From NCBI GenBank assembly GCA_036339465.1, contig JAYZAY010000026.1:1-64000 (forward strand): a stretch of 64,000 bases of DNA, read 5' to 3'. This DNA is from Myxococcota bacterium (GTDB lineage: Bacteria; Myxococcota; XYA12-FULL-58-9; JABJBS01). Position 1 is the first letter of the stretch. The number at the start of each line of letters is the position of its first letter. Made by a program: the position numbers. Positions 15,001-51,000 of this stretch are shown in pieces.

Positions 15001-18000
15001 GTACACGCCAACGGGCACAAGAGTGGTCTCATAAATTAAGCCGCATCATCCAAGATGAAACTTCGATTTATTCGGACCAGCGGACCGTTCTCATCGAATT
15101 AAAAAACCTGGTTGATCATGCCTACCAAATCGCCAGAATCAGATACGACGTTCCCTTGGGTGAACCCGTCACCCGGGCAAGCAAACTGATTGAAGCGTGC
15201 GTCTCCTTGCGCGACTCACTGCAACCCACCGAACATTTTATCTTCGTCCGCGAAATCCTTGCCTCTATTCACGGTTGGGCGAAAGCTTTTTCCGATATCT
15301 CAAGCCAGCTCTTTTCAGCGCTTCAAGAGGATACTAGCATTGTTTTAGACCTTTGGTTTACCAAATTACTTCGGGCCCAAATCGAACACCAGTTGGTCGA
15401 GCGACTCACCGAATCCTATGTCACCATCACCGAATCATCTTTAATCTCCTCTAAGGCCACATCCAAAGAAGAAGAAAAAAATCCAGCCGATGCCATCAAC
15501 ACGCAAGTTCAAGCCGCCCAGGAAAAATGTGTTTTGTGGAAAAAGGCATCTATGATTTCGTCCCTAGGGCAGTGGACCGAACTAGGACCGCCCGAAATGG
15601 AATACCTTTCCGAAAGCCGCTCCCTTCTTTTTAGTGGAAAAAGACCAGATACATTAAACAAGCTCCAACAAATAGCACAAAAGGAAGTCACTTCCCATCA
15701 ACGGAAAACAAAGAACGATCCGCGAGGTCAATTTGAATTCGGAAATGATGGCACCGAAATCGCCAGCTTCAATCACTTAAGCTATGAAACGCGCGAAGAC
15801 CTTACCAGTCGGATCCCAAAAGAGCTCATCGAACAATTCGATCTCCCTGCCGCCGAACGCTATATGGTCGCCCATAGCACCACACACAATAGCCCTTCCT
15901 GGTTCGTCCGCCTACTCACCTTCAAGAGCAGTTTAACTTTTCCCATCTACTTCTTTGGGTTATTCCTTTGCTATTTCTGCGCTGACAACTTTCTTCATAG
16001 CGAATCCGTGCGAGTAAAGGTCTTACCATTCATCACTCAAGTACTTCTCTGTTGGGTCCCACTTGGCTTTATCTCTCTTTTGGTCTTTGGTTCTGTCTTA
16101 AAAACCATCAGGCGATCTACTTTCTCCTACACCGGTTTCGATAACCACCCCAGCATATCAAAATATCGACGCAGCTTCATGCACGAACTTCTTCTGCCGC
16201 GTTATCTCATTTCAATCTGCTTCGGCGTAACCGCCGCATGTATCACCGAACTCGATTATTCGCCGTGGAGCCGACTTAACTACATGCAACTCTTCGTGAT
16301 TCCCGGATTGCTTGCACTCTCATACGTGGGACTCCACAAACACGTCGCCGATTCAGCTCCACGCAATCATACCAGGATTTCCATCGATATTTTCTCCATG
16401 ATATTCTCACAATCAGTGCTCATTGCGCTCATTCTAGGCTTTTTCTTTTCACCTCTCATCGAGGTCAGTGGCCACGACTCTTTCATTCTCTATCAAATTA
16501 CCCCCTATCCCAACAGCCCATTTTCATTCTACCCCATTCTCACCCTGATATTCGCCAGCGTGGGTCTTTTCTTCGCAACATTTATCGAGGGGATATTAAA
16601 ACGCGACCGGCGACCCATCGGCCCCAATCCCTAAGAAAAAAAACAATGAAGCGTTTTAGGAAAACACAACACAGTTAGTTCCATGATTCCATGGATTGGA
16701 GAAATTCTCCCTCGCGGGGTTGATAAGAACACATGCCAAATGCAGGTATCAAACGATAGGCGCCCTCATAACCCGACTTTAAGCTGGCATACTGCACGCC
16801 TTGGGCATTGAATGAACCCACCACCCCATGCCCTAAATAAATTCCCACCACCAGAAACCCAGAATCTTTCCGAACCAATAAATCTCCGTAGATCAAACTA
16901 CTCGCATCTTCGATCTTCTGATAAGCCGTTGATTGAATATGTTTAAGAATACGTTCATGCCTCATTTTAATCGTGCCATTGGGATGAAAATCCGAAAAAT
17001 AAAGGGGATACAAGTGCCTAAGAAAGTGTAAGATATTGCCACCACGAAAGGTGTCTATTCGGTTTTTTTGTTCTTGCTCCACCTCTGAAAGGACCGATTC
17101 AATCTTGCCACAACCCACCCAAAGAGGACCTCCTTCATCAAAAGAAATAACCTCATCGGTACAGGTTACCAATCGATGCCGATAAAACCAGGCCAGGGGA
17201 TTATCCGTCTCACCAAAGAGAGTCCTTGAAGAGTGAATATATCGCTCCATCTTCAAAAGGCAAAAAGACATTCGCCCATGCTTCAATACATAACCCATAC
17301 TATAGAATGAAAAACTTTCGGGCGTCTGTTTGCCGGGCGCAAAAATATAAGTAGGAAAACCCACAGATTCCTCTTGAACTTCGCTTTTATCGGCCGCTGG
17401 CTCATTTGATACAACCGTCCCGCCCTGATCTTGGCTTGGCTCGGTGGATTCAACCACATCCCTTGTCTCTTTTGTAATGGCCCGTAAATCCAATAGACGA
17501 ACAAGCTCATAAACCTTTCCGTCAACACGCTTGCGGAGATCATTCAAATTCGTGAGGACATCCTCAGAAACATTCTCTTCTGCTCCAATCGTCGATAAAC
17601 CACTCAACGAGGTGACTAGTGCAGAGTCCCCTTCTGCAATAGGATCCAACTCATTTTCCAATTCACTTTCAGATTTCTCCGTAGCCTCAGTAGCGGGGAG
17701 GTCGGATGGTTCTTTCGGCGCATCCGGCTCAATATTGAGCACTGTAGGAACCTCCTTAAGACCCACTGGTTCGGAAGTAACAACAGATAAATCACCATCG
17801 CCAAGAGAGGCCGATGCATTCACCCAGACAGTGTCCTCAAGCTCTTCGGTGATGGTGTTCAACGATGACGATAAGGGCGGAACCAGAAGCACACAACCAC
17901 TGCTACCAAGATTCACCATGAGAAGACCAATCATGAATCTGGTACGTATCACCCCTAACCTCACCTTATTGTAGATTCCAGTCACAGGGGCATGAATCAT

Positions 18001-48000: not shown

Positions 48001-51000
48001 CAATCCTCCCCCGTCCAATACCCCGTGGCTGCGCAATCGGAGCACGCCAAAAATTCAAGCTTCGCACCCTCAACCAACGTCCCATCCGTGGTATTTCGGC
48101 GAATTACAAAGGCCGAGAGTCGCAAGGTTTCACGTCCCTCCTGGCAAAGCTCCGCACAAACAACATCCCCCACAGCGTAGGGAATAGAGGAAAAAACTCG
48201 GCAGCCACCCATGGACAAATCGCCTAAAAACTCCTCAAAACCACCGTTCTTATGGCAAAGACGAATGGGCTGGTTCAGTTCTACGCGGTGATAGCGACGA
48301 TGCTCCCCCCCATCGACCCAATCGGGCGCCATCAAAGTCGAACCGTGTCCCCCCATCATTTAGAATGCCCCGGGAAATCAATCGTCATGACATCGAACCC
48401 ATGATGCAGTGCTCCCATCAAGATGACCAATCTTTTGAGGTCCACCAAAGGTGGCTCTAGGCTCCATAAAGATCCACAAGACAACCAGCGAATCGTCACG
48501 CCCAAACTCTAGCAGGGTTCCCATATGAAAAACAAAAATCCGAGTATCCAGACGCGTTCTATCCACAATCTATGGCAGTCTCGGCGGCTTAGGGCCCAAT
48601 GCTCAACCATCAAAATCCAGATGACCGCCGACCGGTACAAAAGAAACGAAATAGGTTGGCTGGAGGGGGATTAAAATGAGTGGCCTCCAAAGAAGGAAAT
48701 AGCGTCAAATTATCAGACCTCTCCTTTATTTCACCAAGCGGATTTCACTGGCCAGCCCTGCGATGTTGCTGTATCGGGAGATCAAGCCACCAGGTCACCA
48801 ACGTAGGAACCAAGAGCGTGTTTGATTTCAATAAAGTGAATACGAGCCTGATTAACAAGAAATCGGGTTCCATCAAGCGCCGTGGAAATAACCTCGTGCT
48901 GGGCGGCGGCTTCCCACCCAGCCCCAAAAAGAGCAGGACTCCCCCCCCTTCCTCCTATCTCCGATCCTGCGGTACCCCTAGAGCATGACCCACTCTCAAC
49001 CCATATTGTTCAAGCGAGACCCAACCACCAAATCCCGGTTAACCACCACCATGATCATACTCGCGTTGATAAGCCTCTTCTTTATCAATCAGAGTCGCCA
49101 CGATAGTCTGCTACCCCCGCTCTTTGTGGGGATATTACTTCTCTCAACCATGGTGTTCATACGCCTCTCCAAACGAAGTCAACAGCACTATATCCAAATT
49201 CATTCTAATTCCATGCTTGTTTATCGGTCGATCCTTTGGAGTCCCGATATTTATGACATCTCTGATTTTAGAGAAGTTCGACGGCGAAACTCTATCTTCC
49301 ACCAAAAACGACCGCTGGTCATTTCCCTAAAAAACGGCCGAAAAATCCATTTGAGTCACTGGTGGCTCACAGAGGATGACCTGAATCGCCTTAAGAAGGT
49401 CTTAGAACGACGCATTTCTTAGGGCCATTCCAGATGACAGCCCCACGCAATTTTCATTAAACAGGCCCCGCTTATTACCCTGTCGAAATATCCGTCACCG
49501 ATTGGTAAAAATTGATAAGCACGACAATGCGTATCTATTTGACAACAATCTCAACATCCCTACTTCCCCACTTTGTTTTTGGGTGATTTCAGTTCACCCC
49601 AATGGTGCCCCCAACAGCGCCCACAAACATTCAGCATCCACCCTAGATTTTCTGGCATTCAAAAATCGATAAAAAAAGAATACGACTAAAAGTATCGTAG
49701 CAACGACAATCATCTTGGCAACAGCAACATCTCTCCATCACCCACCCTTGCGACCAAATTGGCGGCCCGCCCATATACCCGCCAAAAGCCCAAAAAGGTG
49801 CCCTTGCCACGAAACCCCAATACGGGTTGGGAGCACCCCCCAAATAATACCGCCATAGAGAACAATAACCAGCCCAGTCACCAAGAGCCCCGTGAATGAC
49901 TTCTCAACCAACCCAATGGTTAGGAGGTAGCCAAAATATCCGAATATGAGACCGCTGGCACCAATATGAACCGAATGGGTCGCCCCGGTAAGCCACACCC
50001 CCATCCCACCTAAAAACATGATGCTTGCCGTGGCTAAAACAAAATCACGACGACCACGTAAGGCCACCAAAATACCCAAAACAAAAAAGGGCCCGGTGTT
50101 GGCGGCAAGGTGGGCAAAGTTTCCATGCAGCCAAGGAGACCACAAAATACCCCATAGGCCATCCCAGCTTCGAGGCACAATTCCGTAGCGGTCGAGGTGT
50201 CCCATGACCACAAAATCGACCAATTCCAACCCCCACATCACGCCCAACAAAATCGTCACCATGACAATGGGACCTTTCACCGAATCCCGTACTTTCTCCA
50301 CTGCTTGAGCCTCCATCACCGATAACCGACTTCACCTACCTTCATGGGGAAACCAATGACCATCACATCTAGAACCACTGGCACTGCTCTCAATGAAGGA
50401 GCTTATCTGAGAGAGTTTTCATACCAGTTTCATATCCAAGTTTATAGGGTTGTCCTACCGCAACATAAAGACAGTAAATGGGGACCAAGCCCTATTAGGG
50501 TTTACAAAAATCCTCAATAAGGCCACCTTTGGAAACACAGGTCCCATACCCCACAAGTCCATGAACGTATTCATAAGAAACCACGCTCAAAAACTGGAAA
50601 TCGCATATTTATTACGTCATTAATCCTTTGTAGACTGGCATGTCCCCCGGTACAGATCCAGAGATTCATCGTCAGGGAGCACACACTACTGAAACTTGGG
50701 AATATTGTGGACAATCATTCTAATAACGCCGAACCTAAAAAGCGCTACCGCGAAAAAATACGCGTCCTCCAAGAAAAAATCGACACCACTGAGAAAACGT
50801 CGCGTAGGGTCATCCACGCAAGACTCGGCTGTTTTTTACTCACCTGTCTGGCCGGCTATTTCACTTACACCGAAACACTCACAAGCGCACGATGGGCAGG
50901 CTTGACCACAGTTGGAACCGCGCTTTTTTTCGCACTGGTGCTGTGGCATCAACGCATACGCCACTCCCTCAAAAAACTTCTCTCCCTACGCAAAATCAAT

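Follow-up and report, generated by a model that had tools for sequence, protein, structure and literature searches.

A nearly orphan operon of a Myxococcota bacterium encodes a predicted proton motor, a double-PilZ protein and a predicted giant adhesin-barrel polyprotein

The window analysed here (64,000 nucleotides, positions 1 to 64,000 of contig JAYZAY010000026.1) belongs to one contig of a metagenome-assembled genome (MAG; 92.8% complete, 1.44% contamination; assembly 4.17 Mb). ORF calls on the contig place twelve co-directional minus-strand ORFs, g00898 to g00887, at 16675-48359, bearing out the run and the coordinates of the survey's finding. The ORFs encode a double-PilZ protein, an ExbB/TolQ-like channel, two ExbD/TolR-like proteins, seven unknown proteins, and the giant g00888, with the following features.

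47301..48359, minus strand: g00898, double-PilZ protein, 352 aa (Pfam PilZ 4e-19, two stretches; TIGR02266 6.4e-11, below cut-off)
45993..47288, minus strand: g00897, exported, lipoprotein-like (LPSGC); no Pfam, NCBIfam or PDB match
45403..45990, minus strand: g00896, bitopic inner-membrane protein, 195 aa (sequence and hydropathy)
42990..45353, minus strand: g00895, exported, 787 aa (signal-like N-terminus)
41410..43026, minus strand: g00894, exported, 527-538 aa, no family (sequence; Pfam, NCBIfam)
40265..41413, minus strand: g00893, exported, 382 aa, signal peptide (AxA), no family (sequence; Pfam, NCBIfam)
39152..40237, minus strand: g00892, ExbB/TolQ-type channel, 361 aa (Pfam MotA_ExbB 1.1e-13)
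38447..39139, minus strand: g00891, ExbD/TolR-like protein 1, 230 aa (Pfam ExbD 0.0044)
37821..38441, minus strand: g00890, ExbD/TolR-like protein 2, 206 aa (Pfam ExbD 0.01, aa 33-62 only)
36500..37828, minus strand: g00889, lipoprotein, 442 aa, lipobox LAGC at aa 28-31, no family (sequence; Pfam, NCBIfam)
19067..36460, minus strand: g00888 adhesin part, aa 1-~5798 (sequence, Pfam Cu-binding_MopE)
18983..19066, minus strand: g00888 internal MYXO-CTERM-like sorting tag, GGGFGCQSIGDSESLLPLWILLLLGGLVRMR (TIGR03901)
17966..18982, minus strand: g00888 barrel part, aa 5827-6164, 338 aa (NCBIfam TraB, Pfam, sequence)
16675..18000, minus strand: g00887, lipoprotein-like (LGSSGC), 441 aa, overlapping the end of g00888 (sequence; BLASTP against g00897)

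The intergenic gaps across the twelve genes are -37 to +39 nt. Genes overlap at 41410-41413 (g00894/g00893) and 37821-37828 (g00890/g00889, 8 nt), an ATG/stop overlap lies at ~42991-42993 (g00895/g00894), provided that the first ATG of g00894 is its start, and 39 nt separate g00889 from g00888. Judged by hydropathy and sequence, the twelve products are predicted to be membrane, periplasmic, lipoprotein or surface proteins, with the PilZ protein anchored in the inner membrane. The view of the run as a tightly packed single operon of envelope proteins is supported. In addition, the Pfam values noted earlier for PilZ, MotA_ExbB, and both ExbD matches are reproduced exactly, and the proteins listed as lacking a Pfam family have none or only chance-level matches. 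No defence-system family is matched in the operon.

The channel protein g00892 exceeds the Pfam MotA_ExbB cut-off (51.4 bits against 22.9); its best NCBIfam match is TolQ (1.9e-6, far under cut-off). It keeps the APAVGFAGTVQGMIVAF motif and has four hydrophobic segments; the usual three helices are preceded by one more TM helix, at the N-terminus, and by ~95 aa of periplasmic sequence. This N-terminus is conserved in metagenomic homologues P0004-P0006. Both partners score below the Pfam ExbD cut-off of 25.4 bits (g00891, 17.5 bits; g00890, 16.3 bits). g00891 has a trans-pore helix with an Asp (SFDDVAMSLLLFFLV), followed by a long divergent periplasmic part, and aligns with this genome's five ExbD-family ORFs in hhalign (probability 86.7%, E 4.3e-6, columns 8-70). 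g00890 has an acidic cytoplasmic N-terminus, and its ExbD-likeness is confined to the helix (SFDDVALSLLLFFMV; hhalign probability 42% over 26 columns against the same ORFs). The two helices are identical at 15 of 22 residues, and the Asp of each aligns with this genome's ExbDs. With a channel match above cut-off and the ExbD/TolR aspartate in both N-terminal helices, the proposed set of one MotA/ExbB channel and two ExbD-like proteins stands. The ExbB-ExbD1 order is kept in the only orthologous metagenome fragment (L009, 1086 nt), where a 43% identical g00891 orthologue follows the ExbB orthologue.

YcgR-type PilZ proteins act as a brake on MotA, and GldLM is a proton motor that serves the giant repetitive adhesin SprB. 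The operon resembles the former in encoding a PilZ protein with a MotA/ExbB-family channel, and the latter in combining a predicted proton motor with a giant repetitive adhesin, but flagellar and T9SS components are absent here and the PilZ protein is double and membrane-anchored (C-terminal anchor at aa 330-348 by hydropathy). Domain 1 of g00898 keeps RxxxR as RRYHR (aa 21) and DxSxxG as DLSMGG (aa 47); domain 2 has NLSAEG but lacks RxxxR. Thus, of the two PilZ domains claimed, both are matched by Pfam, but only domain 1 provides an intact predicted c-di-GMP site.

g00896 carries five (D/E)RR repeats in its cytoplasmic N-terminus, a single TM helix (aa 69-87), and a periplasmic tail that is acidic, then Lys- and Pro-rich. 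Its topology is TonB/GltG-like, but the TonB C-terminal domain is absent, and Pfam and NCBIfam give no family at E<=0.1 besides a chance RPN2_C match. g00895 is probably a helical repeat protein; it has just four credible homologues (P0008-P0011) among 1.84 billion representatives and also weakly matches a TPR-repeat protein, P0012. Two structure predictions, one of them the single-sequence AF2 model of g00889 (pLDDT 31.7), are unusable. The C-termini of g00887 and g00897 form a paralogous domain (30% identity over 135 aa, E 2e-13, BLASTP). In ESM Atlas, g00897 is linked to NlpC/P60 clusters by its features (0.93) and by nine of ten structure rows, whose TM of 0.45-0.52 falls short of the tool's bar. 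As a lead, the common ~135-aa domain may be NlpC/P60-like but lack the catalytic Cys/His.

The motor block comes close to being an orphan. Among the 21 other genomes of the order, none matches 11.9 kb of operon DNA or four of its proteins (including g00889, g00893, and g00894), and the operon has no paralogues elsewhere in this genome. Homologues of the motor block number 3-4, all metagenomic, among billions of proteins. The orphan status, which the survey's finding rightly claimed, is genuine, although sparse sampling accounts for part of it: a MutS-family flank protein is present in four of five same-family genomes, at only 27-32% identity.

The block might be a divergent Tol- or Ton-like system, for envelope integrity or uptake, whose only tie to an unrelated adhesin gene is its position in front of it and perhaps a common transcript. 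MotA_ExbB matches number 14 in this genome, which also has several ExbD sets, one of them in a second ExbB-ExbD-ExbD run at C25:8442-9986, and Ton systems, too, commonly pair one ExbB with two ExbD genes. The operon shares a MotA_ExbB channel, Asp-bearing partner helices, a heterologous tolR-like pair, and helical accessories with ExbBD-TonB, TolQRA, and function-unassigned clusters of TPR, tolQ, two heterologous tolR, and vWA genes (PMC12204202, section 8), and its motor-adhesin join is seen in a single MAG contig. However, none of the twelve proteins matches TonB_C, TonB-dependent receptor, Pal, TolB, or vWA families (Pfam and NCBIfam), nor is there a TolA C-terminal domain; lacking the first four, the operon departs from the standard Ton and Tol sets. 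The ExbD-like proteins also have long novel periplasmic parts. In addition, the entire 32-kb run is equally rare, as judged from the 11.9 kb of DNA and four proteins compared with the order, and spacing stays tight across the join. The C-terminal paralogues g00887 and g00897 bracket both modules, which argues for one unit. We therefore consider a chance neighbourhood rather unlikely.

g00888 (6164 aa) is confirmed as the genome's largest protein, the next open frame being 3799 aa. Its adhesin part consists of a Sec signal peptide, a ~420-aa undescribed head, and 82 Cys-rich MopE-type units. The head has no AgmC_N match in NCBIfam; it is related to a domain with HExxH in one relative, with RLLGE at that site here. 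As assembled, the ORF contains 82 C[DN]x(1-2)D[DEN][DNE]C[DN] motifs, 370 Cys, and 1147 D+E against 398 K+R. Each piece run against Pfam matches Cu-binding_MopE, but the "metal-binding" nature ascribed to the repeats is only the name of that family. The central repeats have a 384-nt period (128 aa, 61+67) and match at 72-75% in DNA, close to the 66-74% noted before. A protein made of 81 MopE-type repeats had been described; the repeats stand, as 82 units, but the last 338 aa are a separate signal-peptide/barrel module. Logan contigs from four runs in four studies cover 29-30 of 30 bins of g00888 at near identity, with no indel among the matches listed; among these, the longest independent piece is 2657 nt and none spans the tag/barrel junction.

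With TIGR03901 the tag reaches 15.9-16.7 bits (cut-off 20), which ranks third in the genome; a 1195-aa protein on contig C56 has a similar tag at its end, and the genome encodes an MrtX-like CPBP protease (99.5 bits against a cut-off of 180). The barrel part matches NCBIfam TraB (3.9e-6, profile 34-279 of 522) and Pfam Phenol_MetA_deg (0.011). It begins at an internal Met with AGGAGG 10 nt upstream, has a second signal peptide ending in VQA before SA, and is predicted to form a TraB-like outer-membrane barrel with one TSP3-like repeat; Pfam and NCBIfam find no OmpA domain in it. The Shine-Dalgarno-like AGGAGG and the internal Met could allow separate translation of the barrel. We thus predict that g00888 is a polyprotein, a fused adhesin and TraB-like barrel.

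Homologues of the barrel occur in 239 of 301 Myxococcota genomes. All six long-frame relatives examined have adhesin domains, a tag, an in-frame signal, a barrel, TSP3, and OmpA, in that order, and two exceed the cut-off of NCBIfam AgmC_N, AgmC being an adventurous gliding motility protein by its NCBIfam name. A fused adhesin-anchor design with an internal MYXO-CTERM has already been described for Myxococcus MXAN_5598 (Discussion, PMC11980579). By its sequence, g00888 belongs to this MXAN_5598/AgmC-type class, widespread in Myxococcota, so the claim that the apparatus is built from parts unrelated to known gliding devices fails for the giant. g00888 shares with the class the signal peptide, the large repetitive adhesin, the Cys sorting tag with TM helix and basic cluster, the in-frame second signal peptide, the TraB-like barrel, and TSP3. 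It differs in lacking OmpA, in its single TSP3-like repeat, in a head unmatched by AgmC_N, in a passenger of MopE-type Cys-rich units instead of Ig/cadherin-type domains, in the internal Met with AGGAGG, and in its place behind a motor block. A similar order, a Cys-rich stalk and sorting tag and then a partner barrel, is found in TraA-TraB of Myxococcus xanthus, whose genes overlap by 4 bases (PMC3325183); PMC12045341 describes an AlphaFold-predicted 1:1 complex of TraA on the TraB barrel. However, g00888 scores only 25 bits with TraB (cut-off 700), lacks a PA14-type head, TIGR04201 repeats, and OmpA, and is ~9 times as long as TraA.

One lineage-restricted envelope operon joins two modules, a motor and a polyprotein. 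The first would be an inner-membrane proton motor of the ExbB/TolQ-pentamer type, with the two different ExbD/TolR-like proteins probably forming the axle. Its accessories would be two large, probably helical exported proteins, a further periplasmic protein, three lipoprotein-like proteins (two with the putative catalytically dead NlpC/P60-like domain), the bitopic Pro-rich-tailed protein, and the inner-membrane-anchored double-PilZ protein. The second would follow TraA+TraB logic. Sec would export the precursor, and the tag helix and internal signal peptide would lie in the inner membrane as a hairpin. A myxosortase-like CPBP protease would then cleave at the Cys, which is probably lipidated, and signal peptidase would cut after VQA, leaving a ~5,770-residue acidic, disulfide-stiffened fibre anchored at the surface and a free outer-membrane barrel as its docking site. 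The barrel may have lost the OmpA cell-wall anchor of its relatives, and the motor, gated by the PilZ protein, could hold or pull the barrel-fibre complex via the periplasmic proteins, as AglRQS acts through Glt proteins. The processing, the docking and all contacts between motor and adhesin are our inference, as is the output, which may be surface movement, tensioning or retraction of the adhesin. The operon structure points to this c-di-GMP-gated coupling, to which we give somewhat less than an even chance; the operon may be a new way of applying force to a surface adhesin.

The motor could instead power export, outer-membrane insertion or release of the adhesin, without moving or tensioning the finished product. 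A ~5,800-residue acidic fibre may need a power supply of its own, with its display timed by PilZ, and Myxococcus does secrete a protein, PopC, via a TonB-dependent outer-membrane protein, Oar. The same operon structure fits, g00889 and the barrel directly adjoin the giant, and the two putatively dead NlpC/P60-like lipoproteins might, as a lead, open or bind peptidoglycan for passage. TraA-type display is reported to need extra machinery, T2SS and myxosortase (PMC11980579). However, the operon's ExbB/ExbD have no match in the flanks of 13 distinct relatives' barrel loci (15 locus ids, L042-L056), indicating that the class is made without such a motor and that the motor is not its general partner. 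In addition, the genome has one secretin gene outside the operon that could serve a T2SS or pilus route, and the operon has no plug or TonB-box-type receptor family. An energiser of biogenesis is unlikely on this evidence.

Force on the finished adhesin, the reading we prefer, need not mean gliding. In a strict gliding machine, along the lines of the survey's finding, the motor would track along the cell and drag the fibre-barrel complex, giving translocation as in Agl-Glt or GldLM-SprB. Polyprotein relatives bear the name AgmC and the barrel lacks a wall anchor, but a literature search on AgmC in Myxococcus yielded no paper, so AgmC is tied to motility by its name. Pfam and NCBIfam find no MglA, AglZ, GltI, or FHA/GYF-type cytoplasmic track-linking component in the operon, and near-identical DNA in seawater and marine metagenomes fits planktonic or particle-attached life equally. 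We regard this strict version as improbable. The parts list nevertheless parallels Agl-Glt (PMC11761067) in kinds of parts: both have one TolQ/ExbB-like protein with a pair of different TolR/ExbD-like partners, periplasmic proteins of helical type, bitopic proteins whose periplasmic linkers are long and disordered, lipoproteins, outer-membrane barrel(s), and an adhesin at the surface. The accessory proteins have no detectable sequence relationship to Agl-Glt (no match to NCBIfam "gliding_" or Tol/Ton equivalogs at E<=0.1), and TonB-CTD, FHA, GYF, and a cytoplasmic scaffold are absent. By contrast with Agl-Glt, all parts are encoded in one operon, in which PilZ replaces the MglA/AglZ input.

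The operon comprises 12 ORFs on the minus strand of the window (16675-48359), separated by intergenic gaps of -37 to +39 nt. Three junctions overlap (41410-41413; 37821-37828; ATG/stop at ~42991-42993), a pattern typical of translational coupling. The Pfam values that the survey's finding had claimed for the operon proteins are matched exactly on a repeat search. The GC content is even over the operon and its flanks (0.46-0.51), and the flank genes are ordinary, encoding transketolase, prephenate dehydrogenase, a small rhomboid, a MutS-family protein, and sugar-nucleotide enzymes. 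The window spans positions 1 to 64,000 of a contig of 83.8 kb, in an assembly of 4.17 Mb in 102 contigs (92.8% complete, 1.44% contaminated). Promoter and terminator scans give chance-level or uninformative results, and an Rfam search of the window returns no family. Upstream of the PilZ gene lies a 1.4-kb gap (48360-49737), whose sole ORF (145 aa, 48985-49422) is on the plus strand; the gap matches nothing in Rfam, and promoter matches in it do not rise above chance.

The channel protein g00892 belongs to the MotA/ExbB/TolQ family (Pfam PF01618, 51.4 bits against a gathering score of 22.9) and carries the helix with the conserved P-x-x-G-x-x-G-T motif, APAVGFAGTVQG. Its extra N-terminal helix and periplasmic segment are kept in the few homologues known. 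The genes right behind it, g00891 and g00890, fall short of the gathering score of the ExbD family (PF02472; 17.5 and 16.3 bits against 25.4). Their products share a helix, SFDDVA(M/L)SLLLFF, of the N-terminal trans-pore type with a conserved Asp, and have long, novel periplasmic parts. When compared by hhalign with a profile of the five ExbD-family ORFs of the same genome, g00891 with its orthologue from metagenome fragment L009 scores a probability of 86.7% over the helix and first strand, and g00890 scores 42%, limited to the helix; the Asp of both proteins aligns with that of the genome's ExbDs. A second ExbB-ExbD-ExbD run, whose ExbD-like ORFs are long (214 and 197 aa), is located on contig C25 (8442-9986, plus strand). 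Apart from the Pfam families, it shows no detectable similarity to the set in the window.

The first of the two PilZ domains of g00898 contains both RxxxR (RRYHR, aa 21) and (D/N)xSxxG (DLSMGG, aa 47), the second contains NLSAEG only, and the C-terminal end of the protein is a membrane anchor. By motif criteria, with one complete motif pair, g00898 is a predicted PilZ c-di-GMP receptor.

Among the accessory proteins, signal peptides are predicted for g00895, g00894, and g00893, a canonical lipobox is present in g00889, and lipobox-like signals are present in g00897 and g00887. The latter two share a C-terminal domain of 135 aa, which an ESM Atlas search places near NlpC/P60 by features and structure, under the tool's bar for naming. 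Other residues occupy the positions where NlpC/P60 motifs would lead us to expect the catalytic Cys and His. PDB sequence searches with g00897, g00887, g00889, and g00893 return nothing below E 0.6, and an AF2 model of g00889 alone is unusable (pLDDT 31.7). The bitopic protein g00896 has a TonB- or GltG-like topology without the C-terminal domain. In its cytoplasmic N-terminus (gene at 45403-45990, minus strand), aa 14-45 hold five (D/E)RR repeats (DRR, ERR, ERR, DRR, DRR), which might form an array that binds a ligand or partner.

No mark of Ton or Tol systems (TonB/TolA C-terminal domain, receptor, Pal/TolB) is found in the 12 proteins at E<=0.1, and no vWA family matches in the motor block. 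PADLOC, which covers anti-phage systems with MotAB-like parts such as Zorya, finds no family in the 12 proteins at E<=0.01. The NCBIfam 'gliding_' models match no operon protein at E<=0.1, a comparison based on models rather than on M. xanthus sequences. The anatomy of the operon fits among the uncharacterised motor clusters, growing in number, that PMC12204202 describes.

The translation of the giant gene g00888 runs from a Sec signal peptide through a head of ~420 aa, 82 Cys-rich units, a putative MYXO-CTERM-like sorting tag, and an in-frame signal peptide to a barrel and a TSP3-like repeat. Two features of this protein are located as follows.

35111-36379, minus strand: head domain
aa 5798: putative sorting tag, GGGFGCQSIGDSESLLPLWILLLLGGLVRMR

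The 82 units have the motif C-D/N-x-D-D/N-D/N-C-D/N, and Pfam assigns Cu-binding_MopE to every piece tested. The protein is extremely acidic (D+E 1147 against K+R 398) and contains 370 Cys. The tag has Cys, TM helix, and basic cluster in sequence; it scores 15.9-16.7 bits against TIGR03901 (cut-off 20), the third best in the genome behind two proteins over the cut-off. The genome encodes an MrtX-like CPBP protease (99.5 bits, under the cut-off of 180). A rhomboid of 193 aa (49738-50319, minus strand), 1.4 kb upstream of the operon, has rhombosortase as its top NCBIfam match (31.6 bits against a cut-off of 84) and might serve as an alternative enzyme to process the Gly-rich tag of g00888.

The second signal peptide, MRVVFLKGRHWLSIVLVATMVATFNPNVVQA|SA, follows directly in frame after the tag. 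The barrel part (~300 aa) matches NCBIfam TraB over its barrel half (E 3.9e-6, profile positions 34-279 of 522) and, weakly, Phenol_MetA_deg; the C-terminal end is a single TSP3-like repeat, DHDDDGVPDKYDSCP. Because AGGAGG is positioned 10 nt upstream of an internal ATG, the barrel might also be translated separately as a stand-alone product. We rejected an assembly artefact or a lost stop codon at the junction of tag and barrel, since the in-frame layout is common to relatives. Contigs from four of the marine metagenome studies with near-identical DNA tile g00888; they differ from it at few positions, and no indel is listed.

The head is distantly related, at 25-29% identity, to a domain that occurs in the database homologue P0028 and in a small number of Acidobacteriota-type MAG proteins. 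In the MAG proteins it is the C-terminal domain, and the proteins start with a BNR/sortilin propeller. P0028, the sole relative keeping HExxH, has HETGH at the position of RLLGE in the window's head, so any zincin-type site is lost here. The head matches neither PA14 nor AgmC_N (a search of aa 1-520 against NF047640 finds nothing at E<=0.1), and an ESM Atlas search gives no score >=0.9. An AF2 model from a 6-row alignment is unusable (pLDDT 39.4). The head represents a previously undescribed domain family.

The 338-aa barrel part has homologues in 239 of the 301 Myxococcota genomes sampled, a count that takes in the window's own genome and one unpublished genome, G195. Of the first 100 barrel matches listed outside the window's genome, 50 fall, by our own count from the table, within open frames of at least 1500 aa. 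All six relatives with long frames that were examined contain adhesin-type domains (Big_13, Big_6, cadherin-like, DUF11), a MYXO-CTERM-like tag, an in-frame signal-like helix, a barrel, TSP3 repeats, and OmpA, and two of them score above the cut-off of the NCBIfam model NF047640 ('adventurous gliding motility protein AgmC'). Among six further loci, one is fused, one has its genes apart, the upstream gene bearing a canonical MYXO-CTERM, and four have no tag upstream. In-frame adhesin-tag-signal-barrel-OmpA polyproteins look common in Myxococcota, whereas internal MYXO-CTERM motifs are described as rare in the literature.

The fused adhesin-barrel design of g00888 is widespread, and it is already published: MXAN_5598 is described in PMC11980579 as an internal MYXO-CTERM protein with a combined TraA and TraB architecture. 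The MXAN_5598/AgmC type and g00888 have in common an internal MYXO-CTERM-like tag followed by an in-frame signal peptide and a TraB-like barrel. However, g00888 lacks the OmpA domain present in the six relatives and the AgmC_N head (NF047640), and its passenger consists of MopE-type units instead of TIGR04201 repeats or Ig-type domains. The overlap of traA and traB is given as 4 bases (PMC3325183). TraB is described as made up of barrel, TSP3, and OmpA, and AlphaFold predicts a 1:1 complex in which TraA sits on the barrel (PMC12045341). Against TraB (NF033763), g00888 reaches 25 bits where the equivalog cut-off is 700, over the barrel part only and without OmpA, and TraA marks (PA14-like variable domain, TIGR04201 Cys repeats) have no match in its head or repeat pieces. 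We rejected TraA/TraB orthology, as the defining domains are missing.

The motor block is rare. Three homologues of g00892 (65, 59, and 37% identity) are found among 5.8 billion clusters, and four credible homologues of g00895 among 1.84 billion representatives. Pattern scans of 185,579 species genomes, using the ExbB alignment and the homologue P0017, find none; no paralogue of the block is found in the same genome; and 21 other genomes of the order contain nothing for 11.9 kb of the DNA and four further proteins. A metagenome scan gives 31 loci, with L009 the only orthologous one; in the other 30 the similarity (34-40%) is limited to the last ~90 residues, and none of the remaining queries matched. 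Near-identical DNA is present in marine and seawater metagenome runs from at least nine studies, with no RNA dataset among the runs listed. The nearest genomes are distant (MutS-family flank protein 27-32% identical), so that flank synteny in same-family genomes is uninformative. Convergent to the operon is a 1496-aa ORF (12144-16634, plus strand), which matches no family and has four hydrophobic helices in its C-terminal part. This ORF was not found in the five same-family genomes searched, and the orphan region may therefore reach as far as this ORF.

We tentatively propose a trans-envelope apparatus, every contact of which we infer: the proton motor, through its own periplasmic proteins, would act on an adhesin-barrel complex that has no longer its former passive wall anchor (OmpA), and the PilZ protein would gate the motor. 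The logic would be that of Agl-Glt. Against such coupling, the adhesin-barrel genes of the relatives have no such motor in their flanks. It is doubtful that the motor block and the adhesin gene are merely adjacent, an accident that would leave a protein of a known class, unusually large, beside an orphan Tol/Ton-like set. A biogenesis role for the motor block appears unlikely, and a strict gliding machine, a special case of the coupled motor, distinctly improbable.

Should the join prove functional, g00888 would be the first fused adhesin-anchor of the TraAB/AgmC class to be encoded with a proton motor of its own and a second-messenger input. The operon would then hint at a role for the widespread fused adhesin-barrel proteins of Myxococcota and offer a compact 12-gene test bed for force transmission from inner-membrane 5:2 motors to a surface adhesin, which is still inferred, not shown, for Agl-Glt. 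More speculatively, and with rather low probability, a dedicated, c-di-GMP-gated 5:2 proton motor would replace the passive OmpA anchor of a TraAB/AgmC-type device and, by way of its own periplasmic proteins, pull an outer-membrane barrel bearing an 82-unit, disulfide-stiffened fibre. With such a motorised device, marine Myxococcota would have a new class of force-generating surface organelle, by which a cell would drag itself along particles or pull at the membrane of a neighbouring or prey cell.

Elsewhere in the genome, a 1195-aa protein on contig C56 (65515-69102, plus strand) ends in a tag similar to the internal one of g00888, GGGSCASIGGGYSLWAMVLLCLMGFMRRRKNEFR. Near it, a TraB-like barrel-OmpA gene (61310-63286, minus strand) makes up a second, unfused adhesin/anchor neighbourhood.
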